From: Centroscyllium fabricii
Taxonomy: Eukaryota
Assembly: GCA_051313645.2 (NCBI GenBank)
Contig: JBNRSN020000010.1
Location: 9,362,001-9,426,000 of the forward strand
DNA length: 64,000 nt
Direction: 5' to 3'
A model generated the notes under the pieces. It did not search any database and was not told where the DNA came from. It worked only from the letters and a program-made list of their open reading frames with translations. Of the stretch, positions 4,962 to 53,792 are shown in pieces. Each line of letters begins with the position of its first letter. Position 1 is the stretch's first letter. A program made the translations under genes and the position numbers.

Positions 4962-5872
4962 TTACTCTGATTTTCTAACTATTCTCAGAATTAGTGTCCA
5001 GGGCGATTTCACCACATGCTTCAGCTCTTCTCTGAATTTGCTCTGCGTCGCTGCATAAATACACGTGTTTTGAAAGCAACTCAAAAACTTCAGCAAGGCT
5101 CCTGTTTCAGTGGCGATGTATCCAGGATCCGTGTGGTCACCTCGGTAATTAGTCGTGCTTGTCAGCCTGGTAGTTACGAAAGTCACGGCATTGGTCAGCC
5201 AGAACAGTATAAAGCTGCCTGAAATAACGAACAATAAAATAATGGATTTTCTTCGGTTTTCCATCTCTTTATCGCTCTGTTTCTCAGTCCTGTGCCCCCG
5301 GAGTCCCCGGCGAGATCTGCTGGCCACTAAAATACGTCGAACAGTTAAATAATTAGATACGGCGATAACAGTAAAAGGAATCCAGAGAAGCCAGGAGCTG
5401 TGAAACCAGACATAAGCTATGCCTGGGGATGAGGTAAAAAAAGCTACACTTAACCCGCAGCCCCAATGCAGCTTGTTAATTATTTGCTCAGATTCAAAAG
5501 CAAACAAAACGGGAATGTCCTTTAAAAAGATGAGGACCGTGAACGCTGTTATAACCGTGATCGCAGTTCTCTCGGTGCAATATTTTGCCTTCAACCTATC
5601 GTAGCATATAACTACTAATCGGTCAAATGTGAAGGAGACGGTGAACCAAACAGACAGATCAAGTGTGACAACAGTCATGTACAGAATGAACTTACACACG
5701 GGAGTCCGGGAAAGGAATGGAAGGGGAAAGTGATAACTAAAAATATGATACACTATAATATTAATGATCATGACCATTAGATCTGCTGTTGCCATGGCTT
5801 CCATGTAGACAGAGATACACTTGGAAAGGCCGCAATTTCCTCGGGAGAGAATCGCGAGTGTCACAAGGTTCG
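4962..5872 (-). CDS. Orphan class-A GPCR, GPR139/GPR142-like, copy 1, exon 2 (TM1 C-half to C-terminus)
   Basis: Hydrophobic TM segments; FTFDRL (DRY equivalent), TM3 Cys and ECL2 Cys, NTCIY (NPxxY equivalent), SKFR helix 8; acceptor tcttacag|cg with polypyrimidine tract; spliced to exon 1 gives 326 aa. Confidence 0.93.
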
Positions 5873-6337
5873 CTGTAAGAAAGAGAGAGGAGAAAAATTA
5901 TGTTCCAGTGTCTGATCGAAATATATAGGTCGATACCTGCGGAGAGCATTTTACTCCATTCAGTGTGATTATCAATATGGAGCATTATGAGAACAGGATT
6001 AGCATTGTAACCATTACCTGGGACACGGACTTACATATTTTAATGAGTTTCTGCTGCGCTCAATCTGCACAGTGGTGTTGGAGGGTGGGGAGGCAGGGGC
6101 GCAAACACGCTCCGAAAAATCGTCCAAGTCCTTGTGTAGGTTCTTCAGAGAACATTGCAGCATTAGTGAGGATTTGGACTAAGGGATGCACGGTACGTGT
6201 GGATAGGTGATTTACGACCTGGTTCCATTCACTACCGATTATGTAATACTGATATTAATAAATACCTTACCTTGTCTAATATGCTGAACAGGTCCACAGT
6301 TAATCCTGAAAAACAATATAATGTTACAATGTCTCAC

Positions 6338-6407
6338 CGGGGACACCGATAGCTGCGAGAATCGGGTAATAAATCTCTGTTATCAGCAGCATAGGTAGTT
6401 GACCCAT
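6338..6407 (-). CDS. GPR139-like GPCR copy 1, exon 1
   Basis: ATG at 6407; MGQLPMLLITEIYYPILAAIGVP plus G|gtgag phase-1 donor joins exon 2 in frame (PANLVTLAILSR, typical TM1 of this family). Confidence 0.9.
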
Positions 6408-6485
6408 TTTCTATGCGAATTGATGAATTCTGTGTCGGAGATGAAAGACTCTGACTAGCGCACGGCTGAGTCAATGGAAGGGAAC

Positions 6486-6547
6486 CTATATTTATCCACA
6501 CATCAATCCTCCAGCGAGTCAATCAGGTTAATTGTTAATTAGCATTA
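6486..6547 (-). promoter_or_regulatory. Putative core promoter of GPCR copy 1: TATA-like GATAAATATAG, TGATTGAC and TAATGCTAATTA motifs
   Basis: Motifs lie 80-140 bp upstream of the ATG and are conserved at equivalent positions in the paralogues. Confidence 0.55.
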
Positions 6548-6717
6548 ATTGCAGTCATTGATCAAATAGAGACAGCTAAGATGTTTTCTACCTGATACGT
6601 CATATTAATGGAAACAGTTGAAATTTTTAAGGGAATGTTTAATAAAAATAAAATTAAATCATGCTTTACTATTACAGACTTCAATCTCACAGTACTGCTG
6701 CTGCCTCTCTTACTCCA

Positions 6718-7446
6718 TGATGTGTAATTGCCGGTGTTGGACTGTTTCCCGACTGGGAGGGAACACTCCTCCCAGTCGGGGAACATTTCAGCAGTCAAGG
6801 ACATTCAGCTTCCGATCTTCAGGTAAGCATTCTCCAAGGTGGGATTAGTGACACACGACAACGCAAAATCGTAGAGCAGAGGCTGATAGCCAAATTCCGC
6901 ACCCATGAGCACGGCCTCAACCGTGATATTGGATTTATGTCGCGCTACATGTGACCCCGCCTGACGTAGAGTCATCCAGACTCGAATCATCTTTGCCTTG
7001 TTCTGCGATTTTCAGTAAAAAAATCGTTGTTTTTTTAAAATCATTCTGTGGGATTTTCAAGGACAGCAGACTGTAATGTTTGACCCATTGTGACTGCCCC
7101 CTTTGATCTCAGGCTGACTGATATGTTAGAACACCTTTGATTGCTTTCATGTCCCTCAGCTGAGGTGTGATGTGAAACAACTGGAAAGACCACATTGTTC
7201 TCTCTCTATATATATGCTATGTCTAAATAAATCTCTTAAAATATGTTAATACGCCTTTGTGTGTTCTGTCTATCTCTGCTAAGGTGAGATGTGGGAGAGA
7301 TCGGATTTCTCCCTTCCTCCCATATGTGCGTTATTTATGTCAGTCTCTCTTACACCTGACGAAGCGGCAAAAGCTCCGAAAGGTTGTGATTTAAAATAAA
7401 ACTCTTGGACTATAATCTGGTGTTCTGTGACTTCTTTCATTTCTCT
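6718..7446 (+). mobile_element. 5'-truncated Penelope-like retroelement (GIY-YIG C-terminus, 3' region with degenerate hammerhead)
   Basis: 6769-6954 reads LPVGEHFSSQGHSASDLQVSILQGGISDTRQRKIVEQRLIAKFRTHEHGLNRDIGFMSRYM*; insertion absent at the paralogous sites; tactcca repeated on both sides. Confidence 0.8.
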
Positions 7447-7589
7447 TACTCCAGGAGCAGGGAAGGCATCCCCCTAGCACTACACGTCCTGAAACTATAT
7501 TTGCTTCATTTGTATTGCTCCAAGCCCTCCAGAAAATGCGGTGATCGAGGTTTGCGGTATTGATAGTGACCACATTCATGCAGTATTAA

Positions 7590-9560
7590 AGGTAACCGTG
7601 TTCTTCTGGTAGTTTTAGTATTCCTACACTTACAGTATAGGAGACAGTGTTCCCCTGGTACTAGTAGTATCCAAGCACTTACACTGGAGTAGACAGTGAT
7701 CTTTCCACTGAACCAGGTCGTGAACCGCCTATCCACACGTACCGTGCTACCCTTGCAGTAGAGGGGATATTGCTCCTTCAATACTAGTGGTGCCCCTACA
7801 CTTTCAAGAGAGGAGCAGCACTACTTCTGTACCAGTGGTACCCCTAAAATTACACTGGCGGAGAACGTGCGCCTCCAGTACTAGTGGTAACATTACACTT
7901 ATCATAGAGGAGTCGGTCCTCCTTCAGTACCAGTCCTGCCGCTACCCTTGCCGTAGAGTGGATATTGCTCCTTCCATACTAGTGGTGCCCCTACACTTAC
8001 AGTGACGGAGAACTTGCTCCACCAGTAGTAGTGGTAACACTACAATTACCATAGAGGAGTCGGTCCTCCTTCAGTACCAGTGGTGCCGCTACACTTGCAG
8101 TAAAGTGGATATCGCTCATTCAGCACATGTGCTGTCCCTACACTCACACTAGAAGAGAAAGTGCTGATTCCGTATTGTGGTACACTACACTGATACTCCA
8201 TTACCCTGCTCCTGCCGTGCTAGCTATATCCTTGCAGATAGACTAGTGCTGGACGTTATCGTCCTGTTAAAGTGGTTCCCCACACTTACACGAGCTGTGA
8301 TCCTGCATTTACGGAGCGAGTGGTAACTCTAGATATATACTAGTGGTGACCGTGCTTCACCACGTGCAGTCATAACAAGAAACTTACAATGTTAGAGATT
8401 GTGATGTTCTGTAATTAGGTCTATACTATAATTAATCACGAGCTGACAATCCCACACATGTGCTAGTGTTACCCCTACACATATATTAGAGCCATGATCC
8501 TGTACTATTGCTCAAACTATGCTTATATTAGAGCTGAGCACGCAACTCATTGGGCCAGAAATTGCAGTCTGCCCATATCGGGTTTAAGCTCTGGTGTGAG
8601 CGCAGCAGAGCGTAAACCCACAGGAAGCAGCCGGTTGCGCTGCTTCGGGTTTTCCTATGCCTGCCAGCGGAGGGGGAGGGGGGGTTGGAGTTCCTGCAAG
8701 GTCCTGCGCAGGAAGCAGCGAACTAGGGGTGCATCCAGACATTTTTTTTTTTTTACTTTTTCCACGGACCAAGACCAGGATATTCTAGGCTGGGAAAAAG
8801 CAGTCATAAGTATACGTTTTTATCTGGTAAGTGTGTATTTTATTGATTTGAATTGTTGTTTTTTTATGTTTTTAATTGTTGATAACTTTAAAGACAGGTA
8901 CGTATTTTTTTTTAGAGCTGCTGGAAGTTGAAAAATGTTTCTGTAATTGTTAATTTTTTCTTTAAAATAGTTGGGGTAATATTAAAAAAATGTGGTGTTT
9001 GTAAAATTTTATTTTTGTGTTTAGATGTCTTTTGGGCAATCTCTCCTTTCAGAACATGCACAAATTTCCCTGCTCAAAAACCATCTCGCACTAATTACGC
9101 CCTTCAGATGCCCATGAAACTCGCACGGAGCTCTGACAAGCTGGGCTAACTGCAATTTCAGAGTGCAAAAAAGCAATCATGATAATGGGCAGTTCAAGTG
9201 TAACCAGCAGGTGCTGGACCCGCACGAAGGCTCCACTGCAATTTCTGGGCCAATGTCTGCTTGTACCCTACAATTATAGTAGGTGTGTACATGTTCCCAG
9301 GTACTAGCGGTATCCTTCCTGCTACACTGATACGGACAATGTTCTTAGTGTATTAATGGCAGCATACATTTACACAACAGATAACCATCATCCTTCTGAG
9401 GTAGCAACACCCCTAAACTTACATTAATGGTGCTCAATTCCCCGCACTTAAACCAGCGGTGCGCCTGCTTCTAAGATACTAGAGGTACCCCCTAAACATA
9501 CACCAGATGTGATCGTGCTCGTCTGGCAATCGGGTGTCTACAGCTACAGCAAATATGATA
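7590..9560. repeat. Degenerate ~49-bp tandem array (cagtactagtggtacccctacacttac...), split by a MITE
   Basis: agtggt...tacac recurs at ~49-bp spacing, with 147- and 196-bp higher-order matches (7891/8038; 7750/7946). Confidence 0.75.
8552..9251. mobile_element. Complete PIF/Harbinger-type MITE
   Basis: TIRs gggccagaaattgcagt / actgcaatttctgggcc (1 mismatch); flanks ATT / AAT. Confidence 0.85.
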
Positions 9561-9719
9561 CTGTTTTTCCCCTACTATAGCTAATTCTATTCCTAATCGC
9601 GGCTCCACTTTTGTTGAACCCACAGCGACGCATCTATTGCTCTACTGGCGCTGAATCTGCGCTTGCAGCACCAGTGATATATCTACCGCTGGGACACAGG
9701 AAATAATACAAGAACATAA

Positions 9720-10075
9720 TACATTCTAAGGGTTCTAGATATAAAGGATAGGAAGGGCGTATTTCATTTAGCATAGAGGCCAATAACAAGAAGGCATAGT
9801 TTGAAAATAAGTTGTAGAAAGATTAAACGGGAGAGGATGATAGAGGGAGGTGGGGGTCTGGAACTCACTGTCTGAAATGGTAGAAGAGAAACAAAATCTC
9901 ATCACTTTAAAAATGTTTTTGGATATGGACTTGAAATGCAGTAACCTGCAGGGCTACGGACCAACAGCTGACACGTGGGATTAGGCAGGCAAACTATTTC
10001 TCAGCCGGCACAGACACGATAGTCTTATGGCCTCCATCTGTGGCGTAAATTTTCTGTCGTACATTTCTATGATTC
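9720..10075 (+). mobile_element. Old CR1 3' end
   Basis: CR1 3' ORF and UTR remnants; the same insertion is present in the duplicated unit at ~57510-57855. Confidence 0.65.
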
Positions 10076-10189
10076 TGTTCGGTCCATCCAGCCTGCTCCA
10101 CAATTGGTAGTTAGGATCAGATCAGCCTTGAATTTATTGAATGGCGGAGCAGGTTCGATGACCGGTTTGCCTACTCCTGCTCCTATTCC

Positions 10190-12325
10190 TCACGTTCTTA
10201 TTCAATAAAATCATGGACGATCTTCTGCCCAAATACAGCTTTAGCAGTAACCTCATATCCCTTTGTTCCCTGAGCATGCAAAAATCTATCTGTGTTGAAA
10301 ATAGACAAGGACTGAGGATCGACAGAGTTCTGGGGTAGAGGATTCCAAAGTTTCAGAACCCTTTGAGTAAAGAAATATCTCCAAAAATCAGTCCTAAATT
10401 ACGGAATCTATATTCTGAGATTGTGACAGCGAGTTCTGGATTTCCCAGCTAGGAGAATCATCCTTGCAGCATCTACCCTGTCAAGCCCGTTACGAATGTT
10501 ATACGTTGCACTGAGTTCACCTCTCATTCTTCTAATGTCTAACGATTATTGGCGTAATTTACTCAGTCTCTCCTCAAAGGATAACACCTCAACCTCGGAA
10601 TTAGTCGAAACAGCCTGTAAGGCAAGTTTATCGTTCTTTAGGTAAGGAGACGATAATTGTAAACAGTACTCCAGGTGTTGTCCCGCCAAGGGTCCGTAGA
10701 ATTACACTAAGACTTATCGAACCTTATACTACAATCCTTTTGTAATTACATAGAAACATAGAAACATAGAAACTAGGAGCAGGAGCAGGCCATTCGGCCC
10801 TTCGAGCCTGCTCCGACATTCAATGAGATCATGGCTGATCATCCAAACCCAGTACACCGCCCCTGCCCTCTCCACGCATCCCTATCGAGCCTCCATCAAC
10901 ACATATCCCACCCAATCCCCGTATCCCCACCTATTTAATCCCCCTAACACTAAGGGTCATTTACCATGGCCAATCAACCTAACCCCGCACATCTTTGGAC
11001 TGTGAGAGGAAACCGGAGCACCCGGAGGAAACCCACGCAGACACGGGGAGAATGTGCAAACTCCACACAGATAGGACCCGAGACTGGATTTGAACCCGGG
11101 TCTCCAGTGCTGTGAGACAGCAGTGCTATCCACTGCGCCACCGTGCCGCCCCGTGAAGGCAAAAATCAAATTTCACTTCCTAACTATTTGCACCACATGC
11201 ATGTTAACTTTCCTTGATTTGTTTGCAATGACATCCAGGTACCTCTGAATAACAACATTTCCAAATCTCTCAAAAATTAAAAAATATTCTGCTTTTACTT
11301 TTTTTCCCGCTGAAGTGGATAACTTCACATTTTCCCACATTGGAGTTCATCTGTCATGCTCTAACCCTTTCACTTCACCATTCTATACCAATTTGCATCT
11401 TATTTGCATGCTTGTCACAGCTTAGCAACCCACTTAACTTTGTATCAACAGCAAATTTGGATATATTACACTGAGCCCCTCGTCGAAATCATTGAAATAG
11501 TTTGTAAATAGCGGCAGCCCATGCACTGATCCTTGAAATACACAACTAGTTACAGCTTGCCGACCTCAAATCGCCCATTTATTCTTAATCTGCTTTAAGT
11601 TCGATAACCAATCCTCAGTCCATGCTATTATATAACCCCGAGTCCCATGAGCCCTTATGTTACTTAGCAGCCTTTAATTTGGCAACCTATAGAATCACTT
11701 CTGGAAATCCAAATATATTACGCCCGTTGTTTCCCCCTTATCTACTCCGCTAGTTACAGCTTGAGGACATTTTATTACATGTGTCAAATATGATTTATCT
11801 TTCATACATCTGTGTTGACTATGCCCAATCATATTTAGATTGTCCAAGTGTTTTGTTACCAAGTCCGTATTACTCGATTTTTTGCTTACTATTTTTTCTA
11901 CTATTGGCGTCAGGCTAACTGACCTGTGGTGCTGAAAGCTATTTTTTCCTATTTCTTGAATAGCGGGGTTACTATTCAAACTCTCAAATCGAGAAAGGGC
12001 GGTGCGGCATTATTCAATCTAGGAAATTTTGAAAGACGAAAACCAAGGCATTCACTCTCTCTGTAGGTACCTCTTTTAAAACCCGAGGGTGTTGGCCTTC
12101 AAGTTACGAGAATTGGTTGGCATTTGGTCCCATTAATTTCTCCAGTCTATTGCTTTACTGATACTCATTTTTTTAAGTTTCCCATTCCCACGAGATGCGT
12201 GGTTCCCCACTATTTCCAGATTGTTCCTTAAGGATTCTTCTGTGTGGACAGATATAAAGTATTTACTTAAAGAACAACGATTTGCGTATTCCTCATTAAA
12301 ATGTCTCCTCTCTATCTGCAATGGT
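10190..12325 (-). mobile_element. Degraded CR1 LINE interrupted by a SINE
   Basis: ORF 11695-11979 resembles CR1 RT (SVSLT..., GVIYLDFQK); paralogous copy at 57865-61208. Confidence 0.8.
10748..11152 (-). mobile_element. HE1-type tRNA-derived SINE, full length
   Basis: A box TGGCGCAGTGG, B box GGTTCAAATCC, V-SINE-like core, CR1-derived 3' tail with (TTTCTATG)n. Confidence 0.9.
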
Positions 12326-12799
12326 GATTAAATGGCACATGAAGGTTTCCAGGAAATGTATCTGAATCAGATTTGGATTGTTATGTTGATGCAGAAATAT
12401 GACATGGTCTCACTTTCTTAACTTTTGTCTTCCTCTGTTCCTCAGGGGTTGGCTCGCTGACGGTGCCAGAGGAATTTTCCTGTGACTCGACCACCGAGCG
12501 TATCGGATGACTGGCATCAGAAGCTCGCAGACTTTAAGCAGAGACAGCAGGAAGCCCAATTGTCAGCGAGATTTACTCTCAGGTTTTTGAGCGCATGTTC
12601 AACTTGTGCAACACATTTGGCATTGCTTCCCAACACCAGACCAAGTTCGCCGCCAGCGGATAGATTTACAGCGAAACTCTGGGGGGATCAAAAGAAAGAC
12701 GGCTTGTCCACATTGTCATCAACAACATCTTGCATTTTATAGCGCATAATATTGCAGTACACTTGTCCAAGGCGCTTCAAAGGAGCGATCATCAAATGC

Positions 12800-13632
12800 A
12801 ATTCAGATGGGCAGAACAGCGGCAAATGGAATTTAGATCTTCAGAACAGGGAAATGGAATGTAATCCTGAATAGTGTGTGGTGATGCATTTTGTGACTTA
12901 CAAGGCAAGTGTATACACAATGAATGGTAGGATCAGAGGGACCTTCGTGTGCACGTGTATATATCCCTGAAGGCAGCAGGACAGGGACATAAGGTATTTA
13001 GAAATGCATATAAGATACTTGCCTTCATTCGCCGAGGCATAGAGTATAAGAGCAGGGAGGTTATGATATAGCTGTACAAAATGCATATTAGGAAACAGCT
13101 GGAACATTGTGTGTGCAGTTATAAGCGCCTCACAAGGATAGGGGTGCGATTGCATTGCAGAGGGTGCATAGGAGCTTCACCAGATTGTTACCTGTGGTGG
13201 AGAGCTTCAGCTATGAAGTGAGTCTGGAAAGGCTGCGGTTGTTTTCCTCAGAGAAGAGAAGGCTGAGGCTGCACAAACTTATGAAAGGCACAGATAGGGT
13301 AGATAGAAAGGAACGTTTCCCCTTAGTAGAGGGGTCAATAACAAGGGGGCATAGATGCAAGGTAAGGCCAGGAGGTTTAGAGGAGATGTGAGGAAAAACA
13401 TTTTCTGCCAGAGGGCTCTTGCAATCTGGAAATAATTTCCTGAAAGGGTGGTGGAGGCAGGAACACTCACAACATTCAAGAAGCATTTAGATGAGCACTT
13501 AAAACGCTATAGCATACAAGGCTATGGAGCAAGTGCTGGAAAATGAGATTAGAGTATTTAGGAGGTAATGGCCGGCGCGGACATCATGGGCCAAAAGTCC
13601 ACATTCTGTGCTGTATAACCCTTTGACACTAT
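12800..13632 (+). mobile_element. CR1 LINE 3' fragment
   Basis: ORF 13155-13391 (QRVHRSFTRLLP...SYEVSLERLRLFSSEKRRL) is a CR1 RT C-terminus. Confidence 0.85.
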
Positions 13633-13633
13633 G

Positions 13634-14608
13634 GGGAAAGATCGGTTGGATGCGCCTCCTGTTAGCGCCTTACCTGGGCTCTAATGGGGCCTAAAGCAAC
13701 TAAAGCCCAGGAGCAGCGAGTTTAGCGCCACTCGAGAAATTGTCTAGGCATTTTGTGGCGGTGCTAAGCACTGCTGCCATGATCTCCTACGCTAGTAGAC
13801 GGTGACGGCAATGGAGTGCAACATGCCCCAGTAACGCCCCGATCGGATATTAAGAGGTACCCCCTGCCTTAGCACCTTTCGATGGCAACAATAGGTTGAA
13901 GGGAGAGCTCTGCAGTCTAAATGGGACTGGGGAATGATTTTTAAAGGTGACTGCTTCTTTCCCTTTTTGTTGGTAACATTAATGCACCACGCATTCTCTG
14001 AGACAGAGAGACTTCTGGAGAGATTCATCATTCTGTGAATGAGTTTTGGGTACTGGGGCGTACTTTGCAGGTTCATTTTGATTTACCTTTCATTGTCTCG
14101 ATTTAGAGCTGAATGTGGAGGCTGCACACTCAGTTTTCCCTGTGGCTCTCCATTGTTCTTCCCAGTAGATTGGATGCACCAGGCTCTCCAGACCGATATT
14201 CAAGGATGCACTGAGCAAGATGTGCATGGCGAGCAAGATCAACCCTCCCCTTTAAGATAAAAACAGAAAATGCAGGAGAAACTCAGCAGGTCAATCAGCA
14301 TCTGTGAAGAGAGAAAAAGAGTTAAAGTTTCAGGTCGCTGACCTTTCATCAAAAATTTCCCTTGGGAATAGCACACTGCCAGTCAATCTGTGTTCAATTG
14401 GGGACTGACATCACATGAACTTTGCCAGCGCTCTGAGGTAACACCGGCGCCCTAACAGATGTATGTAGCAGCTGATTTAGCGCTCCAAACAGCTGTAGGG
14501 TCGAGAAAACACAAGTTTGTTGTCAGTGGCGCTAATTCGCGCCAGGCGCTACATATAGAGTTGCGCCGCATGTATTGCCACAAAAGTGGCGATACCTAAT
14601 TTTCCTCA
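13634..14608. mobile_element. Composite Harbinger-type MITE with a nested Penelope-derived segment (~14258-14356)
   Basis: Inverted homologue at 50414-51375; ends ggggaaagat / aattttcctc; repeated agcgcc subterminal motifs. Confidence 0.65.
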
Positions 14609-14624
14609 TTTGCATCTATGACTA

Positions 14625-15125
14625 ATTTGATACCGAGACACATATGCATATATTAGTTCAGTTGAACAAAAGCTTGTCCAATGTGACAGGTTTTAAATAG
14701 CGCCTTGGTTGAGGAGAGAGCGACAATAGTTCCGTTTTATGGATGTTTTACTCGGGTTTAGGGACATTGACGCTGACAACATGGCCGCCAAAGGTGGAGC
14801 GATACAAATCGAATATGCGCAACAGGGCAGAATTGGAGGAACTATCTCATGTGGGTTGTAGGGCTGGATCAGATTACAGAGATATAGAGGCCGTGGAGGG
14901 TTTTGAACACATGGATGAGAATTTAACATTGCTTCAAGCAGGATCGGGAGTCAATGCAGTTCACCAGGTTGAGGGGGTGATGTGTAAACGGGACTCCGTG
15001 CAAGTTTTGAAGCAGGCAGCTGAAGCTTGTATGAGCAGTAGTTTACCGGGGGTGCAAGGCGGAAGACGGGCCAGGTGCGCATTTTATCGACCGGACTTCA
15101 TGTAACAAAAGCATGGCTGAGTGTT
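14625..15125 (-). mobile_element. L2-like LINE remnant (its 3' end is at ~12715-12800)
   Basis: Homologous to the uninterrupted copy at 61595-62180; L2-type 3' end gcgctata..aatgca.g..gttg. Confidence 0.55.
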
Positions 15126-15378
15126 TCAAAACCTGTTTTAGACCCCTGCAGCAAGCTGAAACACTATTATTAATAAAGATAAATAATTGCCTGCTACTGA
15201 GTAATGTGATGTGAGTCTAGAAATCACTGTTTGCGATATTAGCAGATGAGTTCATAATATTTTAAATGGAATCCCACCGTACAATTATAATGGTGGTCTT
15301 GACCTTGTTATGCTAATTGACTGGCGGCTTGGAATGATTGGTCTAACGATTCCGTAAGCAATATTTTACAGCAAAACT

Positions 15379-16234
15379 TAGGGAGGAAAAACAGGGCTAA
15401 TCTTACCCCTATTGCAATGGAGCGTAAACACTGGCGGAGTTTAAAACGAGCGGGAGACCGGAATCCGCCCGTTTACCGTCCGAGGGGTTTGTTTAAAGTA
15501 ACGCCTCCTTTTGTCTTATAACATACTTTCATAATGAACGGGAGTGCCATGTTACTCCTTGTGAATAACGTTTTTTACTCGCTGGGAGATTCCTCCCAAA
15601 TTAACCAGCACCGTTCCTTTTCCAAACCATGTCTGAATGGCCCAAACATTTCCCTGTAGATTCCCGTGTCTCTGTGAGCTGGAAGTCACCGGATGTGATC
15701 TTAGAGGATGAATGCCACCTTTGAAACTCATTTTCTTTAGAGGCGGTGTCAACAAATTTAAAAACATTTCTCCAATCAGGCGTCTGCTGATTGCATGGAC
15801 TCTGCCCAGGCTTTCAGTGTGGAACCGTAAATCCGTTCCCAGCTTTATAACCCGTGACAGACCGCTGATATATAATATAGGAAATGCTTACAACACGTGT
15901 ACCAGCTAAGGTGTGTATTTTGTATTAAATTAATTAGTCGGTTTAGGTATGTAAGTCTCACAGAGCAGGAATGTCCCAGGTGCTACACTGGCTTAGAGTT
16001 CGTTGGGAATGCGAACGGCAACATTATTACAACTTTGTAGCCAAATTTAACTTAGCCCGTCATTCTGGAAATTGATGGAATCGGTCGAACGCGGGATTCC
16101 TCGCTGCAAAATTTTACTCTCGAGGAAGTCACCAGAGAGTAATATAGAAGGGGGAGTGGTGGGGATAATGTAAAACTGGCTTTCCACTCGATTCTTTCAG
16201 ATTACTGCGCGGCGTGTTATGTTAAAACCACCCC
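15379..16234. mobile_element. Old MITE-like element shared by the duplicated units
   Basis: Homologous to ~62440-63495; ends gttaaaa..acccc. Confidence 0.4.
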
Positions 16235-16789
16235 ACTGCGAGGGCTGTGTTTGTGTGTGGTGGGGGTGGGGGGGGGGGGGGGGGGGGTGGCGTGGGGCGG
16301 GGAGGGAAAGTCCAGCTTTTATGAGGGAACACTCTCCGGGCAGGATGAGAAATGTGGATTCACACCCGATTACCTGACGGATCTCCTGCCACCAACAAGT
16401 GATGAAGCTCATCAGAAGGGAAAGGTGAGGAGGAGTGCTGGCAGGAGGTGTAGGAAGCAAATACGATAACCTTGTGCCTAGAAGGTAATAGCGCATTAAT
16501 AATTTAGTGCAACCTTTTTGTCAGCACGTGCATTATTGCATTAAAGATAAACACAGATTAGCATTATGCAATGTCCAAAGAATCAAACCTGGTTCCTGTT
16601 GTATTCCAGGCTGATTTTTTTCTCCAATATAAAACCATTGCGACCCGTCTCAATTTTGTCTTTATTTTGTTTATTTATGAGTTGGTTTTTCAGGTATTGC
16701 TCTTAGCTTCACACGTGTTGTCCGATACAAAATGAACGTTATTCATTAACTGCATTTTGGCGCCACTGCACCAAGTAGTTTTCTTGCTG

Positions 16790-33274: not shown

Positions 33275-33308
<34 letters not shown>

Positions 33309-33610: not shown

Positions 33611-33734
33611 AGATCAAAAAACAATAGACGACAAAAAAAAATGTTAATACATTGAAACGTGGCTACACAAAATCAAATTAATAAACACATTGTAATGATA
33701 TCGATTATTAAATATAAATTATATATTGGCGATT

Positions 33735-36455: not shown

Positions 36456-37360
36456 TCATTTTCTATCTATTCTCAGAATTAGTGTCCAGGGAGATTTCAT
36501 CAAATTCTTCAGCTCTGCTCTGAATTTGCTCTGCGTTGCTGCATAAATAAACGTGTTTTGAAAGCAACTCAAAAACTTCAACAAAGCTCCTGTTTCAGTG
36601 GCGATGTATCCAGGATTTGTGTGGTCGCCTCGGTAATTAATGGTGCTTGTCTGTCTCGTAGTGACCAAACTCACCGCATTTGTCAGCCAGAACAGTATAA
36701 AACTGCCTGAAATCATGAACAATAAAATGATGGATTTCCTTCGGTTCTCCATCTCGGTATCGCTGAGATTCTCACTCCTGTGACCGCGGAGTTCCCGGCG
36801 GGATCTGCTGGCCCCTAAAATACGTCGAACAGTTAAAGAATTAAACAAGGCGATAAAAGTAAAAGGAATCCAGAGAAGCCAGGCGCTGTGAAACCAGACA
36901 TACGCTATGCCTGGAGAAGAGGTAAAAAAAGCTACACTTGATCTGCAGCCCAAATGCACCTTATTAATTATTTGCTCAGATTCAAATGCAAACAAAACGG
37001 GAATGTCCTTAAAAAATATGAGGACCGTGAACGCTATTATAACCACGACCGCAGATCTCTCGGTGCAATACTTTGATTTTAACCTATCGCAGCAGATAAC
37101 TACAAATCGGTCAAATGTGAAGGAGACAGTAAACCAAACAGACAGATCAAGCGTGACAGCAGCCAAGTATAGGATTAACTTACACACGGGAGTATGGAAC
37201 AGGAAGGAAAGTGGAAAGTGATAACTAAAAATATGATACACTATTATGTTTATGATCATGACCATTAGATCTGCTGCTGCCATGGCCTCCATGTAGACGG
37301 AGATACACTTGGAAAGGCCGCAATTTCCTCGGGAGATAATCGCGATTGTCAACAGGTTCG
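36456..37360 (-). CDS. Orphan class-A GPCR, GPR139/GPR142-like, copy 2, exon 2
   Basis: Open frame with FTFDRF, NTFIY, SKFR; acceptor tcttacag|cg; spliced product 324 aa. Confidence 0.93.
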
Positions 37361-37824: not shown

Positions 37825-37894
37825 CGGGGATTCCGACGGCTGCGAGTATCGGGTAAACAATCTCTGTTATCAGTAGCATAGTAGGTTGACACAT
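37825..37894 (-). CDS. GPR139-like GPCR copy 2, exon 1
   Basis: MCQPTMLLITEIVYPILAAVGIP plus G|gtgag; 70 bp like copy 1. Confidence 0.9.
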
Positions 37895-37969: not shown

Positions 37970-38032
37970 CCTATTTTCAACCGCATATCAATTCTCCAGA
38001 GAGTCAATCAGGTAAATTCATAATTAGCATTA
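37970..38032 (-). promoter_or_regulatory. Putative promoter of GPCR copy 2
   Basis: TAATGCTAATTA at 38021-38032 and TGATTGAC retained; TATA-like box altered. Confidence 0.5.
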
Positions 38033-39357: not shown

Positions 39358-42300
39358 TGTTGGGAAGCAATGTATTGCTCTGTTTGGCTCTGTACTGTAA
39401 ATAGTGACGTGTGATGAACCACGTTATTGCTCTTTAATGTATTTAGTGCACTGTGTGGTATACGTCACCTCTTGCCGACCAGACATCCACCTGAGATGAT
39501 TCAGCTGGCTCCACTACTTGCCTCCACCTGCAGACTGCCGTATATCGGTTGCAGCGCGGCTGACCTCATGACATTTCGGGCCCGGTTAGTGACGAGACCT
39601 GTACTCCAGTTCTTTAGGAAATAAAAGCCTCAGTTATATTCTTAACATCGACTTGAGTTTTATTGATCGTGCATCAATTTTATTACCAAACATTTTCGGC
39701 AATGGACAACATATTGATACCTGGGGCGGCACGGTGGCACAGTGGTTAGCACTGTTGCCTCACAGCACTGGAAACCCGGGTTCAAATCCAGCCTCGGTTA
39801 TTATCTGTGTGGAGTTTGCACATTCTCCCCGTGTCTGCATGGGTTTCCTCCGGGTGCTCCGGTTTCCTCCCACAGTCCAAAATGTGCGGGTTAGGTTGAT
39901 TGTCCATGATAAATTAACCCTTAGTGTTAGGGGGTTTGAATATGTGGGGTTACGGGAATAGGGTGGGACATGTGTCGATGGAGGCTCGGTAGGGATCGAA
40001 GGATATGGGGAGAGGGCAGGGGCAGGGTGCTGGGTTTCGATGATCAGCCATGATCTCATTGAATGGCAGAGCAAGCTCAAAGGGCCGAATGGCCTACTCC
40101 TTTTTCTAGTTTCTATGTTTCTATGTTTCTATGCTTGCCTGGAGTTGCAACCACATGCTCCGGGAAACTCCAGGAGATTCGCCCACTGGTTCAATCTGTT
40201 CAAGCTCTTCTTAGATGCCTCCAATGTGAAGGCACCACCGAAGACCAGAAATTGGCGGTCCTACTAGCCCATGTGAGCCGAAAAATCTACTCGCGAATCG
40301 AGAGCGAGTTGACTTGCGATAGCACCCATAAGATCCTCAAGCACCGGGTCACGGCCTGGACAAATGAAAACTACACGAGACACCTACTACTGTGCCACAA
40401 GCAGCAGACTGGTGAGCCTACTGTGGACTTTGTCACAGAACTGCAGACGCTCACGCAGGCTTGCAACTTCCAGGAGGTTACTGCCCAGGCCCACGAGGAT
40501 GCACTGGTCCACAATGCTCTGGTTGCGGGTATAAGATACAACTACAACCACCGGCGGCTGTTTGAGCAGAAGAACCCTGAACTATAAGGCGATATGGATC
40601 TCGCACACTCCCTGAAATTAGCGCATCGGAAAAAAAAATCCAACGAACATGCCGACGACCTCATGGGCAACACGGGCACAGCCCTTTCTGATGGTAGGAC
40701 CGACCCCCACCGCGCCTCCCTGCTAATGTCTGCAGCTGTATCCAGCGACCAGAAATGCTGCTTCTGTGGCCAAACAAAGTCCCCAGGCAGCGCTGCACGG
40801 CGAGATCGGCAACGTGCTCAAGCTGCAAGAAGATGGGACACTACGCCAGCGTCTGCAAGGCGAGACCATCCCACAACCCCAGCAGCACTGCGTGTGGTCC
40901 AGCAGAGAGGCCATCTTGGAGTGGCCAACTTACCCCGCCGCGTGGTAAGCAAGCGGGAGGCCGTTTTGAATCGGTTGGCCATTTTGTCTCTCCCCCGGCC
41001 GCGAGCGAACAGTGGGCCCCGGCAACTTTGATCCGAATGCCGGGCGGCCAGCTTGTATCTCCTCTGGTCGCGGGTGAGCACTGGACGCCGCCATCATTGA
41101 TCTGGATGACGCCATCTTGGAAGCTGCCGCCTGCGCCCGCCTCCCCCTATTCCCACGGGATGATTTCGACCGGCCTTTAGCTCAACTGGCCTCGATCACC
41201 CTCGACCAATCTCGACAACACCAGCCCGCCAGGTCCACAATGGACATCATGGAAACGGCCGCTCTACAAACTGCCATTTTGACTCGTCGATTACTGAAAG
41301 TGTTGTCCATCCGGATATGTTGTGGAAGCTTTCCCTCACGGTGCTCCCAGCGCGCCAGCGGAACTCCCTGGCCTCTAACACTAAAACAGCTGATGGCGGC
41401 AGCTGCTGCATCATTACGTTAACGGTGCGGGGCACCGTGTATGATAACTTGAAACTTTTCATTCTTTCCCACCTCTCCGCTGCCGTTCTGCTCAGGCTAG
41501 ATTTTCAGAGCCACCTGGACAGCGTCAGTATGAAATATGGTTGGCACCTCCCCCCTCTCACTGTATGTATCCAGCAGTTTTTAATGCACCAGCCACGCAC
41601 TGTCTGCAGCCTTTCGACAGTCAAGTTCGCCCCTCCTTCACATTTTGTTAACCTCACAACAAGACGGAAAGCCCATGAATACCAAGAGTAGGTGCTGCAG
41701 TATGTGGGATAGACAGTTTATCAAGTCTGAGGTTGAGCAACTACTGAAGGAGAGGGTCACCAATGCCAGCATGAGCCGCTGGAGAGCCCAGGTTGTAGTA
41801 ATCAAAACCGGAGCAAAGCACCGCCTGCTCATCGACTACAGGCATCCTGTCAACCACTTTACACAGCTAGATGCATACCCCCTGATGCGCATCTCTGGCA
41901 AGGTAATCCAGATTGTGCAGTACCGGTTATTCTCCATGATTGACTTTAAGTCAGCGTACCACCAGCTCCCCATCCATCCTGAAGACTGCTGATTCACCGT
42001 CTTTGAGGCGAACGCCCTTCTTTACCACTTCCTGAGTTTCCCGTTTTGCCTCACCAATGAAGTGTCCGCCTTCCAATGGGACATGGACAGTATGCTGGAC
42101 CAGAACGGGCTGCTGGCTACTTTCTCCTACCTCGGCAACGTCACTGTCTGCGGCCATGACTTCCAGGAATATGACGGCAACCTGGCCAAATTTCTCCAGA
42201 ACCCCCAAATCCTTACCCTCACTCATAATAAGGAGAAATGCGTTTTCCGCACCACCCGCCTCGCCATCTTGGGCTGTGCTGTAGAAAAAGGGGTAATCGG

Positions 42301-43830
42301 CCCTGAGCCTGTATGAATGTGCCCCTCCTGGAGTGTGCCCTTGCCCACAGTCCCAAATTCCTGAAAAGGTGGCTGTGATTTTTTTCGTACTACACCAAGT
42401 GGGTCCCCCAGTATGCTGACAAATCCCACCCCACATCAAATCCACCTTCATTCCCCTGGCGGACAAGGCTTGCGCAGCCTATAAGAGCATCCAATCACAT
42501 ATCGCCAAGGCGACCATGCACACCGTGGACGAATCAATCGCGTTTCAGGTGGAAAGCGATGCATCTGAATTCGACTTTGCCGTTACCCTTAATCAGGTCA
42601 GCAGACCAGTGGCCTTCTTCACCTGTACCCTCCAAGGCCCTGAAACCAGACACTCCTCGGTGGAAAAGGAAGCAAAGGCCATCGTGGAAGCAGTGCGGCA
42701 CTGGAGACATTACCAGGCTGGTAAAATATTTACCCTACTCACTGACCAGCAATCAGTGGACTTCATGTTTAATTAAAAAAAGGCGGGGTAAAATCAAAAA
42801 TGATTAAATATTGATGTGGAGAATTGAGCTGTCAACCTATAACTATGACATCTTGTACTGGCACGGTAAACAGAATGGGCCCTCAGATGCCCTATCACGC
42901 AAAATCTGTGCCAGCAAACAAGCGGATAGATTGCATTACATCAACGATGACCCCTGTCACCTGGGAATCACCCATCTCTTCCATTTAGTCACATCCCGCA
43001 ACCTGCACTACTCCATTTCGGACAACCGTTGCGATGCCAGGCACTGGCCGACCTGTGCTGCGAGCAAGCCACACTTCTATAGGCCAGATAGAGCTAACCC
43101 TATAAAAGCCACGTGCCTCTTTGAGCGCCTGAGCGTCGACTTGATAAGGTCCCTCACCTCTTCCGTCCGCAGCGTGCATATCCGCATGATCATTGATGAG
43201 TACTCAAGTTTCCCCTTCACCATCACTTGCCCTGACAAGACCGCAGCCACGGCCATCAGGTTTCACCACAGCTTCTTCACCATGTTCGGCCTCCCCAACT
43301 ACATCCACAGTCACCGGGGGTCGTCGTTCTTCAACGATGAGCTGTGCCAGTACCTGCCCTCCAAAGGTTTCGCAAATAGCAGGACCACCAGTTGCAACCC
43401 CCAGAGCAACGGATAGGTTGAGAGGGAGATTGGGACAGTCTGGAAGACCACCCTTCTAGCTCTTCGGTCCAGTGGCTTCCCAATCTCCCGCTGGCAGGAG
43501 GTCCTCCCTGATGTGCTCCATTCCATTAGTTTGCTGCTCCGCACTGCGACCAACGCTACCCCTCACTAGCGGATGTATTCCTTTCCCAGGTAGTACTCGC
43601 CGGGGACCTCGCTACAATCGTGGCTGACGTCCCCAGGGCCCGTCCTCCTTCGAAAACACGTGAGGGGCCTCAATCAGGACCCCCTGGTCGAAACGGTCCT
43701 GCTCCTCCACGCCAAACCCCAATATGCCTACCTGACGGGCGTGAGGACACCATCTCCATTAGAGACCTCGCAACTTCGGGTGCCCCTGTGACCACCACTC
43801 CACCCACCGTGGTCCTTTTGTTTAATTACA
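39358..43830 (+). mobile_element. Degraded Mag-like Ty3/Gypsy LTR retrotransposon (5' LTR 39358-39676; gag-PR-RT-RH-IN; no 3' LTR)
   Basis: Double Cys cluster in gag (C.FCG...C..RSATCSSCKKMGHYASVC), RT (IDFKSAYHQ), RNase H (VESDAS, SSVEKEA), integrase (HSHRGSSF, NPQSNG). Confidence 0.9.
39723..40132 (+). mobile_element. HE1-type SINE inserted in the Mag element gag
   Basis: A and B boxes, V-core and CR1-type tail; similar to 10748-11152. Confidence 0.9.
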
Positions 43831-44604: not shown

Positions 44605-46366
44605 GGGCCCTGTTTTCCTGTGCTCCAGAGGAGCTGCACACTCACGAAGGGGGTTGAGAAATGCCCCGTAGGTGTGCAGCACGGGGGATGCCCACGGACG
44701 TCAATTTGCTGTGCTGATGTGCAAGGACCTTCAGCTTCCAACGCAGGAAAACCTTGCACTGACGATTTCCTGTAAGAACTGGTCAATATGCTTGTGTCAT
44801 CACGTGGGCAAGTCTCTCTGCCGCTGCACATCTAAGAATCAGTCGTTGCTGGTGCTGTAGTGCGTTCAGAACGGGAGAAAAACTCTGAAAAGCTTTAAAA
44901 GGTAAGTTTTTTGTTGGTTCCTTTGGTGATGGGCAAGGACCTCCAGCTTCCAAATGTGAGGTCATCCACTTTGGGGGCAAAAACAGGAGGGCAGATTACT
45001 ACCTAAAGGGCAATAGATTGGGAGATGGGGAGGTGCAGAGAGACCTGGGTGTTCTTGTACACCAGTCGCTGAAGGCGAGCACGCAGGTGCAGCAGGCGGT
45101 TGGGAAGGCAAATGGTATGTTGGCCTTCATATCAAGAGGGTTCGAGTATCGGAATAGGGATACCTTACTGCAGCTGTACAAGGCACTGGTGAGACCACAC
45201 CTCGAGTATTGTGTACAGTTCTGGTCGCCTCGTCTGAGGAAGGATGTTCTTGCCATGGAAGGAGTGCAACGGCGTTTCACCAAGCTGATTCCAGGAATGG
45301 CAGGAATGACCTACGAGGAAAGATTGTGTGGCCTGGGCTTGTACTCATTGGAGTTTAAAAGATTGAGAGGCGATCTCATTGAGACGTATAACATTCTGAA
45401 AGGTCTGGACAGGCTAGATTCAGAGAGAATGTTTCCAATGTCGGGGGAGTCCAGAACCAGGGGCCACAGTCTAAGGATAAGGGGTAAACCATTTAGGACA
45501 GACATGAGGAAGAATTTCTTCACTCAGAGAGTGGTGGGCCTGTGGAATTCCCTGCCACAGAGGGCGGTGGAGACCAGTTCATTAAACATATTCAAGAGGG
45601 AATTGGATATATTCCTTCAAGCTAAAGGGATTAAAGGTTATGGAGAAAAGGCGGGGACGGGGTACTAGCTTGCTAAAGATCAGCCATGATCTCATTGAAT
45701 GGCGGAGCAGGCTCGAAGGGCTGAATGGCCTACTCCTGCTCCTATCTTCTATGATTCTATGATTCTATGATGTGTGTGTGGTGTTTCAACTTTTGAATTG
45801 AAGTGATTTTTGGGTTTTGAGCTGTTTGCTGCCTTTTCTTTTTTAAAGACCGTTTTCGTAAAAAATAAACTATCTGCTGCCTTCTAACTGTGTGTTGTTT
45901 GAACTGTTCAATTTGAGTGATTCTAAAGTTTTAAAAAAAATAAAAAACAACGGGTTTTTAACTGTTTTACAGCCTTTTCTTTTTTAAACACTGGTTTTTG
46001 ATTCCTAATATAAAATATAACTAGCAGCTGTCTTCTCAGATAAGTTTTTTAAAAAAATCACAGAAAACGATCAAAAGTAAGCAATCATACCTAGAGATCT
46101 TTTCAGCTGCTGAGCCTTTCCTTTCTGCAAGATTCTGTGCGTTCTGTGGGGGCGTGTTCAGAAAAATCGGACCTCAGTGGGCGTGGCTTGGTCATAGCCC
46201 AGGAAGAAAACTCAACGCAGCAGGAGAAGCCAGATGGCTATGCAACCCATGAAGACGGCAAATGTTACAGGAAATCGAAGAGAAAAAAATTAAATAACGT
46301 GCGCGTGCATCGCGGGTGTGCAGGAGCGCGCACCCACAGCAAATGTAGCACAGGAAAACAGGGTCC
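44605..46366. mobile_element. PIF/Harbinger-type MITE interrupted by a CR1
   Basis: TIRs gggccctgttttcctgtgct / agcacaggaaaacagggtcc; perfect 3-bp TSD AAT (44602-44604, 46367-46369). Confidence 0.85.
44952..45770 (+). mobile_element. Young 5'-truncated CR1 LINE
   Basis: Uninterrupted ORF 45018-45668 (RDLGV, RPHLEYCVQFWSP, FFTQRVV); (TTCTATGA)n tail. Confidence 0.95.
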
Positions 46367-50413: not shown

Positions 50414-51375
50414 AGGGTGAAAATCCACTATGGCCCCCTTTGGAGCGCCGTTGTGTGCGGTTCACGCAATTTAGCGCTTGCCACTAATTTTCGTCTCCAA
50501 CTGCAAACTTGGCTTTTAACGCACCTGGAGGTGATTGGAACGCTGAACCAGGCAGGACACAACTAGCTTAAGGCGCCAAGACCGAGGAGCACGGCTTTAC
50601 CTCAGAGCGCTGTGAAAGCTCACGTGATGTCAGTTATCAACAGACCACAGACACACTGGCACCGTCCAATTCTTTATGGAGTGTTCTGACGAACGTTCAT
50701 CGGCCTGAAACGTTAACACTGATTCTGTGTTCACAGATGTTGCTTGACCTGCTGAGTTTCTACTGCATTTTCTGTTTTTATCTTAAATCGGTAAGTTGAT
50801 CTTGCTCTCCATCCACATCCTGCTCATTGCAGCCTTGAATCTCGGCCTGGTGGGATAGGTACATCAGATCTGCTGGGAAGAACATAGTGGAGACCGAAGG
50901 GAAAGAGCAGGGAGTGCATTCCCCGCATTCTCTTCTAAATTGGTACAAGGAAGGACAAATCAAAATGAACCTGCAACGAACTGCTCAGTACCCAATACTT
51001 CTTTACACAGTGTTGAATTTCTTCAGATGTCTCTCTCTGACCCTCACAGAATGAGTGGTGCAAAAATGTCACCAAAATAAAACGGCAGGGAGTGCACCCC
51101 CAGACCCTTTAAAACTGCAACACGTTCCCCTAAACCTATCGTTGCTCGCAGTCGGTACGGCAGGGACCACCACTCAATCTCCTGTCCAGTGTGCAGCAGG
51201 GACAGTGACCACTCGAACGATATCACAATCTGCCAGCGCAGGGAATCGTGGAGGTCATGTTTAGCGCCGTCGCAAAATGTCTAAACTCGCTGGGCCTTGG
51301 CACCGCTTGCATAGCGCCCCCATTAGCGCCCTCCTACGGCGCTAACGGGAGGTGCAACTAACTGATTTTCCCCCC
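50414..51375. mobile_element. Composite Harbinger-type MITE, inverted homologue of 13634-14608
   Basis: Collinear reverse-complement similarity including the nested Penelope-derived piece (~50680-50778). Confidence 0.65.
50680..50720 (+). ncRNA. Hammerhead ribozyme motif with degraded stem II
   Basis: AGUGUU-CUGACGA-...-GAA-ACGU-U-AACACU: 6-bp stem I, core, palindromic stem III. Confidence 0.55.
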
Positions 51376-52429
51376 TCAGTGTCTGGATTTCAATCACGTT
51401 CGCAATCCAACCACTGGCAATTGTTCTTCTCCGCTGAGAACTTGTTCCCATTCCTTGCCATCCCTCGGAAATTGAGATGAGATCAGCGATGAACAATTTC
51501 TAACTGTTTCGAAGTTGCTGGCATTATTCAAATGTCATTTGGAACGATGTATAATCGCATAATAAGATGTTAATTACCAAAGTGTACTTCTGACCGTCTA
51601 CAAATGTTCAGACAAATAAAGGATACTGAATATCAGTTGTATTTTATCTGAATTTCGAGCAGTATCGTTACTGATAACTTGCAACAATTCTAATAGTCAA
51701 TAACTTTATGAAGCTTCACACACATGTTTACATACTTTTAATATTTTGTTTGGGAGAATAATTGAGACAGATTATCAACAATAGTACTCATGCTACTTTT
51801 ATTGACCGAAGAAACAAGCCCAGAGTCAATCATTGTCCTGAGAGAGAGACACCAATCAGTGTACAATTGCGATGTTAAGACAGTATCTTGGACAAAATAG
51901 GTCAACGTTCACATCGATGAGCCGACTTCCGTGTGCTTCCCACATTCGAACTCCAGTCACGTGACAAGAGCTTGCTTTATTTGCCAATGAGCAAAGTGTC
52001 CGAAAGAGAGACCCGCGCCTGCATCATTCACAGCAAACTTCAGTGAAAGTTACCAATATCGGCGATCGGAAGACCGTTGATTGTTTTGACACCGCATAAA
52101 TAGTTTTTCATGATTTTAAAGTGACGCCTCCGATACCAGTATCTGCAGTGTAAGGTGAATTCCTCTGTTGCCCATAAATCCGACTCTAATCCTGAACATG
52201 GTCATTGTTATATTTGATCCTTAAATTTGACATTATCTGAATTTTCAGTAATAGGTTATGTTTACTCAACGAAATACTAAAGCAAAAATGAAACTAAATG
52301 CATGAAATACACGTTAGACAAGAACTCACCCATTATTCAAATTTCCAGAAAGAAGGACGTTCTGCAATCGGAAAGGAATTGAAATTGGTCTTTCGTTGCA
52401 TAAAAGCTTTCGGTTGACGTGATTCTTTC

Positions 52430-53666
52430 AATTCAGAACAGAAACCGTGTCCAGGGAGATTTCAGCGCCCTCTTCGTCTCTTCTCTGAAGTTTCTCTGGG
52501 GCACTGGCTACATTAATGGCTGTTGAAGGACACTCAAAAACTTCAGCATTGCTACGGTTTCAGTGGCGATATGTCCATGATCTGTGCGGTCGCCCCGGTA
52601 ATAAGTGGGGTTTGTCAGTCTTGTCGTTCTCAAAGTCTAGTCAGCTGTCAGCCACAGCAATATAAAACTGCCCGACACAGTGAGGAGTAAAATAATGGAG
52701 TTCCTTCGGTCCTCTTTCTCTTTATCGCTCTGCTGCTCAATCCTTTGGTCCCGGAGTAACCCCCAGGTCCTGCTGGCCACTAAAACGCGTTTGACTAATA
52801 AATATTTTAATTCTTGAAAGGAAGCCACACTGCACTAAGTTAACGTTTTGTTCAGGTTTAAATGCAAAGCAAACAGGAAAGTTCTTCAAAAGGCTCAGGA
52901 CAGCAACGTTGTTATAACCGCGGAAGTGCTTTTCTACTTCTGGCTGCAGATATCCACAAACCGATCAAAGGTGAAGGAGACCGTGGACCAAACAGACAAA
53001 TCGAGTTTGACAACAGTGACATATTGAATTAACTTACAGACGGGAGTGTGATAAAGGAATGGAAGTGGAAATTGATTCCTGAAAATATAATACTCGATTA
53101 TATTGATGATCATGATCATTAGACCCTCTGTTGCCATGGCCACCATGTAGACAGAGATAAAGCTGAAAAGGCCGCAGTTACGTCTGGAGAGAATCAGCAT
53201 TGTCATCAAGTTCGCTGCAAGAATGGGAGAGGAGAGACATACTGTTCCATTGTCTGATTGAAATACATATTGAGCTAACTGTGGAGAGAATTCTACTCCA
53301 TTCAGTGTGATTATCAACACGGAGCACTGTGAGAACAGGATTAGTATAGCAGCCATTTCCAGGAAACCACCCACACATGTTAATGAGCTGCTGCAGCGCT
53401 CACTCTGCACGGGGGCACGTGACCCAGAAATCCGCTACAATTCTCGTGTTGGAGCTTCCAAGAACACTCGTTTCACGAGTTGCTTCCAGTCACGGCAGAC
53501 TGTTTAGTGCTGACATCTGGAAAACACTTGACATTATCCGAAACGCTGTATGTACATGAATACAGCTAATCCCGACGCAGAGGATACAATGACTCGCTGG
53601 GGACGCCGATGTCTGCGAGAATAGGGTAGTAAAACAATTTTATTAGCAGAATAGTTGTTGACCCAT
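52430..53666 (-). pseudogene. GPR139-like GPCR copy 3, pseudogene (exon 1 53598-53666, exon 2 from 53214)
   Basis: 1-nt deletion in exon 1 giving TAA at codon 8; donor changed to GC; in-frame TAG at 52934 and 52637; TM5 region deleted near 52830. Confidence 0.9.
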
Positions 53667-53742
53667 TCTCGGTGAGAACGGCATTAATTCTGTAGGAGGT
53701 GAAAGACTCTGACGGGCGCACAGCTGAGGCAATGGCGGGAAC

Positions 53743-53792
53743 CTATATTTATCCACACATCAGTTCGTCAGTTGAAATCATAATTAGCATTA
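53743..53792 (-). promoter_or_regulatory. Relict promoter of GPCR copy 3
   Basis: GATAAATATAG and TAATGCTAATTA retained; TGATTGAC segment deleted. Confidence 0.45.

Follow-up and report, generated by a model that had tools for sequence, protein, structure and literature searches.

Introduction

Among vertebrate G-protein-coupled receptors (GPCRs), the OR, TAAR, V1R, V2R and T2R repertoires are arranged in tandem clusters with pseudogenes and species-specific blooms, and combine a variable binding pocket with a conserved signalling half. The vertebrate MRGPR and FPR expansions grew from a peptide-receptor lineage, and the nematode Srw receptors form a repertoire derived from peptide-type rhodopsin receptors. 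In coelacanth, gar and fishes, Rinne et al. 2019 (PMC6504862) described the orphan subtypes GPR210A and GPR210B and a third unnamed set beside GPR139 and GPR142. Here, we analyzed a stretch of 64,000 nucleotides (nt) from Centroscyllium fabricii (assembly GCA_051313645.2, contig JBNRSN020000010.1, positions 9,362,001 to 9,426,000; hereafter the window), which contains three copies, g1, g2 and g3, of a GPR139-like receptor gene. Two of the copies are intact and one is dead, and all three belong to a large elasmobranch family, which has expanded by tandem duplication and likely serves as a repertoire for many outside ligands. The family itself is real rather than an artefact, is not a set of GPR139 orthologues and is apparently undescribed in print, as far as we searched.

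Two intact receptor genes and one pseudogene

A six-frame scan and tBLASTn detected exactly three seven-transmembrane (7TM) gene copies in the window, all on the minus strand and spaced by ~31.5 kb (g1-g2) and ~15.8 kb (g2-g3). An earlier reading of the DNA made from its letters alone (the sequence-only reading) had described three co-oriented two-exon 7TM genes, two intact and one dead, and this description holds. The exons are as follows, TM denoting a transmembrane helix:

6338..6407, minus strand: g1 exon 1, with the start codon, a short N-terminus and the first half of TM1; matches the N-termini of annotated relatives
4962..5872, minus strand: g1 exon 2, the remainder of TM1 through the stop; the spliced product is intact and has 326 amino acids (aa)
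37825..37894, minus strand: g2 exon 1, spliced with g2 exon 2
36456..37360, minus strand: g2 exon 2; the spliced product is intact and has 324 aa
53598..53666, minus strand: g3 exon 1, pseudogene, frameshifted and with a GC donor
52430..53214, minus strand: g3 exon 2, with stops, frameshifts and deletions of 21 nt and 89 nt; its 3' end is approximate

Both g1 and g2 have zero internal stops and a GT..AG phase-1 intron within TM1 (465 and 464 nt, respectively), at the P-A-N motif, and the intron of human GPR139 lies inside TM1 at this motif too. The pseudogene g3 is dead by a 1-nt deletion and a GC donor in exon 1, the deletions of 21 and 89 nt, and stops. The products of g1 and g2 differ at 52 of 324 positions (84% identical). 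Pfam reports 7tm_1 alone for g1, g2 and g3 (E≤0.1), Rfam returned 0 matches, and the marks of class A receptors are present (7tm_1, seven helices, N1.50, D2.50, C3.25, R3.50, P5.50, N7.49 and Y7.53), with P6.50 and P7.50 replaced by Thr in g1 and g2. The N-termini of g1 and g2 are free of glycosylation sequons, as had been proposed, and the g1/g2 substitutions singled out at that time are real, being located at 3.31-3.33, in extracellular loop 2 (ECL2) and at 6.54-6.55.

An alternative N-terminus made by reading through the intron was rejected: the frame is open in g2 and g3, but two stops interrupt it in g1, and exon 1 matches annotated relatives. Reads of four public runs cover the intron, and no splice joint appeared among the 15 of 62 joints listed (run type unrecorded; two samples, one study). 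As a separate observation, TM2 position 2.44 (window ~5801 and ~37289) is Glu in both g1 and g2, encoded by different codons, and Val in g3; Val occupies this position in 82% of near relatives, and Glu occurs in only g1 and g2 of 119, placing a charged residue in mid-TM2.

Segmental duplication and conserved non-coding segments

The ratio of nonsynonymous to synonymous divergence (dN/dS) between g1 and g2 is 0.31 (0.20-0.47 over 500 bootstraps), and the synonymous divergence (dS) is 0.26, compared with 0.23 in the intron, 0.22 upstream and 0.24 downstream. Because dS matches the divergence of intron and flanks and dN/dS is low, g1 and g2 represent an old duplicate under purifying selection. 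The features that bear on the duplication are:

4230..16779, no strand: g1 block, collinear with 51679-63999 at an offset of ~47.3 kb and 66-76% identity
51679..63999, no strand: g3 block, the second block copy, which continues past the window end
5873..6022, minus strand: conserved 3' end of the g1 intron (last 150 nt), 93% identical to g2 versus 73% in the remaining intron (p = 2e-7)
6408..6715, minus strand: region upstream of g1 that also occurs at g2, g3 and other paralogues, with a TAATGCTAATTA motif identical in all three genes and a TATA-like box

The collinearity of the g1 and g3 blocks indicates that the duplicated unit is at least 12.5 kb. The three genes arose by segmental duplication with the intron retained. 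Retroposition was ruled out, as the intron and 12.5 kb of flank were duplicated too, and recent whole-gene gene conversion was ruled out, as dS equals the divergence of intron and flank.

Within the conserved end of the intron, the segment 6002-5953 is 92-94% identical in all three pairs, the pseudogene g3 included, and raised read depth indicates that the intron 3' segment is also common to other paralogues. Its equivalents lie near 37361-37510 and 53215-53365; in g2 and g3, though not in g1, a frame runs open from it into exon 2. This segment may be a regulatory element or a conversion tract. The interval 6716-7500, which immediately precedes the g1 promoter region, is a very high-copy repeat (summed depth ~1e6), probably a short interspersed nuclear element.

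A large family in sharks, skates and rays

When g1 exon 2 was used as the query, 1181 matching clusters (at 90% identity) were found at E≤1e-3 among 2138 candidates, and counts per species were taken from the best 120 of these 1181. All of the best 120 are elasmobranch, from 12 species and 56-77% identical: Pristiophorus (sawshark) has 33, Heterodontus 28 (17 on one contig), Heptranchias 25, S. canicula 11 (all on one contig), S. torazame 7, Rhincodon 7 and Stegostoma 4, with five single rows. GPR139 is single-copy; here there are three genes in 64 kb, and at least 33 sawshark clusters among the best 120. A profile search of 50% representatives gave 133 matches at 1e-30. The family-level representatives that were looked up were shark, skate or ray in 14 of 14 cases, while the others owe their assignment solely to their place in the tree. 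Many of the members in databases are fragments, and no chimaera occurs among the named family rows.

A FastTree of the 119 near members requires 27 changes of species label, against a shuffled mean of 71.5 (0 of 200 shuffles as low), which points to lineage-specific blooms, and g1 and g2 are each other's sisters. In the four public runs that contain g1, 14-32 different contigs show other letters at the listed coding sites, and the summed depth at 5800 is ~260-450x the single-contig depth, a value that shows many paralogues and is not a copy number. The earlier proposal of a lineage-expanded tandem family undergoing birth and death is supported by three genes in 64 kb, one of them a pseudogene, and at least 25-33 distinct members in some species.

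Relationship to GPR139 and single-copy relatives

Human GPR139 was the best match (65 bits; the next, 50) when the family profile was compared with 222 PDB sequences, and no OR, TAAR, V1R or T2R receptor was among the PDB matches listed. GPR139 is also the best solved-structure match for the coelacanth and frog relatives; a PDB search with the single sequence of g1 exon 2 gave two matches and did not reach GPR139. On the same profile, two vertebrate groups score far higher. Clade A, in which 20 amphibians and a sturgeon are represented by a single row each, reaches 170-204 bits in amphibians (salamander rows), and clade B, found in sharks, ray-finned fishes, coelacanth, amphibians, turtles and squamates, has a median of 162; of the 145 clade B matches, the best 120 include no mammal or bird in their named rows. 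Amphioxus genes score 122-138 bits and mollusc-type FMRFamide-receptor-like proteins 103-109.

Clade A joins the elasmobranch family with a support of 97 in a quick tree of 91 rows and 100/98 in a mixture-model tree of 37 of these rows; the monophyly of the elasmobranch genes apart from clade A is weaker (82 and 83/90, respectively). In the mixture-model tree, the chordate clade with GPR139-like orphans is separated from a protostome-type outgroup at 100/100. On these trees, the family has bony-vertebrate kin, a one-per-species sister gene in amphibians and a sturgeon (in Xenopus tropicalis, XP_031757816.1), which is a new finding and had been overlooked by the sequence-only reading. Judging by the taxa and the order of accessions, clade B (coelacanth P0215 and its kin) is probably GPR210B, and clade A may be the third unnamed set. 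Clade B is a second orphan receptor in its own right: it is conserved, occurs once in each species over a range from sharks to reptiles, has Ser or Cys at 6.48 and is in two instances annotated as a TMEM183A isoform. The previously described sets come from genomes without cartilaginous fish, and the pertinent sections of that paper report no expansion (PMC6504862); clades A and B are here likewise one per species, with a conserved pocket.

Judged from sequence comparison, the family is best placed in a wider GPR139/142/210 group, with GPR139 as its nearest characterized receptor. W3.41, N5.58, W6.48 and an aligned TM5 His are common to the family and GPR139; unlike GPR139, the family is multi-copy, lacks F3.33, R6.51 and N7.39, and has a C3.25-ECL2 cysteine pair. 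These cysteines are kept in 94-100% of the family, whereas human GPR139 has Asp at 3.25. Both trees were built without true GPR139 and GPR142, and the distinction from GPR139 rests on scores and residues: the family is not GPR139, because 65 bits lies below the amphioxus and mollusc receptors and the ligand residues are replaced. Together with copy number, this agrees with the earlier view that the genes are not GPR139 orthologues.

We also examined a structure model of P0004, the nearest full-length relative (77% identical to g1), which reaches a predicted local distance difference test (pLDDT) score of 90 and shows seven helices together with an ECL2 hairpin. Peptide receptors have the folds closest to it, tied at Z 27-28; GPR139 is outside the 50 VIA matches listed and ranks eighth by Foldseek among near ties, at ~20% structural identity. 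As the ranks are nearly tied, the fold does not discriminate. A model of exon 2 only was poor (pLDDT 61), and its fold search was not used.

A variable pocket on a conserved core

The alignment for pocket analysis contained 119 of 122 near members, 47 deep members (four added to 43 representatives that had passed filters for coverage and for a single domain), 23 clade A, 116 of 120 clade B, three amphioxus-group, one anchovy and five outgroup sequences. The pocket was defined by 26 fixed cavity positions drawn from the literature, with TM1 excluded, and its weighted entropy was compared with that of 52 other outer TM positions. In deep members (n=47), the pocket is more variable than the other outer TM positions (2.51 vs 1.97, p = 0.004). 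The pattern is reversed in clade A (n=23; 0.32 vs 0.69, p = 0.003; by residue class p = 0.05) and in clade B (n=116; 0.75 vs 1.14, p = 0.03; by residue class p = 0.26). Correspondingly, pairs at 60-80% TM identity differ at 48% of pocket positions in the family, 8% in clade A and 23% in clade B. The 95 inner TM positions are the most conserved within the family, and core residues are invariant across subfamilies down to 34% TM identity. Ligand diversification is supported, since the pocket of the family varies more than the rest of the outer TM region and that of its single-copy relatives less.

Trp, Phe and surrogate agonists of GPR139 act through F3.33, H5x43, W6.48, N7.39 and, by model, R6.51 (PMC5430874). 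The corresponding residues in g1/g2 are V/A, H, W, N (6.51) and A (7.39), so that two of five are kept. In clade A, F3.33, K6.51 and N7.39 are present in 23 of 23 sequences and W6.48 in 96%. A basic residue at 6.51 occurs in 0 of 119 near members, 4 of 47 deep members, 23 of 23 clade A, 115 of 116 clade B and 3 of 3 amphioxus-group sequences. The suggestion that the receptors sense amino acids is, in its GPR139-style form, not supported, three of the five Trp/Phe residues being replaced in g1/g2. An excess of pocket variation, also predicted earlier, was recovered across the family and was reversed in the single-copy clades, but was not found between g1 and g2.

Proposed function and alternative explanations

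We suggest the following mechanism. The single-copy ancestor would have had a GPR139-like pocket, with an aromatic residue at 3.33, a basic one at 6.51 and N7.39, that accommodated a single conserved ligand. In sharks and rays, these anchors would have been released and each copy tuned to a different water-soluble ligand, with all copies signalling via the same G protein. Peptides or amino-acid derivatives are the best guess for these ligands, given the peptide-receptor fold with its ECL2 hairpin and disulfide, and putative sites of expression are environment-facing cells: olfactory, taste, skin, gut chemosensory or immune cells. We consider it probable that the copies form a repertoire for outside ligands in exposed cells of some type, with about half of this expectation falling on nose or taste and most of the remainder on immune or skin sensing.

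Several observations weigh against this explanation. The OR, TAAR, V1R and T2R families typically have coding regions without an intron, unlike the family studied here. A short sequon-free N-terminus is also present in the single-copy bony-vertebrate relatives, and g1 and g2 alone show no pocket excess (3 of 26 pocket vs 20 of 147 other TM positions, Fisher p = 1.0); for these reasons neither the N-terminus nor the g1/g2 substitutions alone mark a chemoreceptor. In near members, plain entropy gives only a borderline excess (1.59 vs 1.26, p = 0.11), which becomes significant when residues are grouped by class (0.98 vs 0.59, p = 0.008). The entropy tests take positions as independent, and the sequences are related. 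Moreover, the pocket pattern is also expected of any paralogues with different ligands, endogenous ones included. Olfactory neurons of catshark have already been explained as V2R/TRPC2 microvillous cells (PMC10116579), and the catshark genome paper, in its available portions, reports no GPCR among the 50 genes most specific to brain and olfactory epithelium, a list that would also miss V2Rs (PMC11979771).

A repertoire for outside ligands can take two specific forms. In the first, which is possible but only tentatively held, the family would add a fifth to the olfactory or gustatory receptor families, with one-per-neuron expression in the nose or taste buds of sharks. This form fits the clustering, the birth and death and the variable pocket, and also a homeodomain-like motif kept upstream of all three genes, although this motif is short and lies in AT-rich DNA. 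With 7tm_1 as their only Pfam match, which speaks against an olfactory role, and with a coding intron, the genes of the window differ from OR, TAAR, V1R, V2R and T2R. In favour of this form, look-alikes in the atlas include Srw-type nematode chemoreceptor clusters, and Srw/Srx Pfam matches occur in these look-alikes and some relatives; the nematode expansion is however independent, and g1 and g2 have no Srw match. Sharks have many olfactory neurons and cartilaginous fishes only 20-62 complete known olfactory receptor genes (PMC10869828), but the published catshark olfactory work, in the portions available, did not notice the family. The further claim that this is an unrecognized shark and ray chemosensory family, unrelated to OR, TAAR, V1R and V2R, which rivals or exceeds the known olfactory repertoire, derives from a GPR139-like peptide receptor still single in frogs and forms a vertebrate parallel to the nematode Srw expansion, is on the doubtful side.

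In the second form, which we rate as rather unlikely, the family is an immune or skin/somatosensory repertoire like the formyl-peptide receptors and MRGPRs that detects microbial, parasite or venom peptides. The FPR- and MRGPR-type families fit the same genomic signatures, the model has a peptide-receptor fold, and the near subfamily conserves an acidic D3.37 and E7.36 and a basic K7.42, which hint at charged ligands. According to the relevant part of the whale shark paper, MAS1 and its relatives are missing from cartilaginous fish (PMC8455134); this would leave such a role vacant. Against this form, GPR139, among the closest relatives, is described as neuronal (PMC12208981).

It is improbable that the ligands are an endogenous neuropeptide or metabolite family, with receptor copies multiplied for the sake of dosage or of patterning among brain regions. 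The single-copy sister retains a GPR139-like pocket, but a hypervariable pocket and loss of the basic 6.51 are unexpected for one endogenous ligand, and we know of no matching peptide expansion. In favour of such receptors, the nearest characterized relative, GPR139, is reported to be activated by Trp/Phe and dynorphin (PMC5430874, PMC12287315).

Still less probable is an expansion that is largely a neutral by-product of a duplication-prone, repeat-rich region, with most copies redundant and decaying. One of three local copies is dead, the window is rich in long interspersed nuclear element (LINE) and Gypsy remnants, and fragmentary members are many in databases; however, the dN/dS interval for g1 and g2 lies below 0.5, the core is invariant across subfamilies, and variation is focused on the pocket rather than even.

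Finally, duplicated GPR139 orthologues sensing aromatic amino acids are hardly credible: database names, the best solved-structure match and retention in g1/g2 of W6.48 and the His aligned to H187 favour them, but the score of 65 bits (vs 204 for the amphibian gene, 122-138 for amphioxus and ~105 for the mollusc type), C3.25 in place of the human Asp and the replacement of F3.33, R6.51 and N7.39 argue otherwise.

Other features of the window

The remaining features are mostly repeats:

21564-25020, minus strand: degenerate Gypsy long terminal repeat retrotransposon, with protease, reverse transcriptase, RNase H, integrase and chromodomain pieces
40063-43413, plus strand, and 34302-34679, minus strand: Gypsy-type remnants (integrase core; gag)
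26607-27878, minus strand, and 44889-45665, plus strand: CR1-like LINE reverse transcriptase fragments, the first with a 424-codon open frame
19318-20998 versus 49587-47898: inverted repeat pair of 1.7 kb at 90% identity, probably young copies of one LINE
24960-26400, 30400-31870 and 32400-33700: minisatellite arrays with periods of about 40 and 49 nt, together with a GA-rich tract that includes a 176-N gap

Implications for cartilaginous fish

Proteins of this family are already in RefSeq under a misleading GPR139 name, nearly all of the best 120 being automatically called 'probable G-protein coupled receptor 139'. We found the expansion undescribed in the open-access literature, subscription papers lying mostly outside that search, and in the same literature GPR210 was found only in Rinne et al. 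2019. Nothing on the family is contained in PMC12294341 and PMC3963977; GPR139 does not occur in the main text of the catshark genome paper, as available (PMC11979771), nor do sharks in the accessible part of a GPR139 review (PMC12208981).

Cartilaginous fish have been described as having a 'relative paucity' of GPCRs (PMC8455134), and shark smell has been explained as sensitivity at the expense of discrimination (PMC10116579). The family has at least 25-33 distinct members per species within a single subfamily, which alters the GPCR count of cartilaginous fish, whatever tissue uses them. The frog gene, present once per species, makes the ancestral ligand and tissue tractable to study. With a fixed pocket in frogs and scrambled pockets in sharks, the step from a hormone-type receptor to a repertoire is directly testable.

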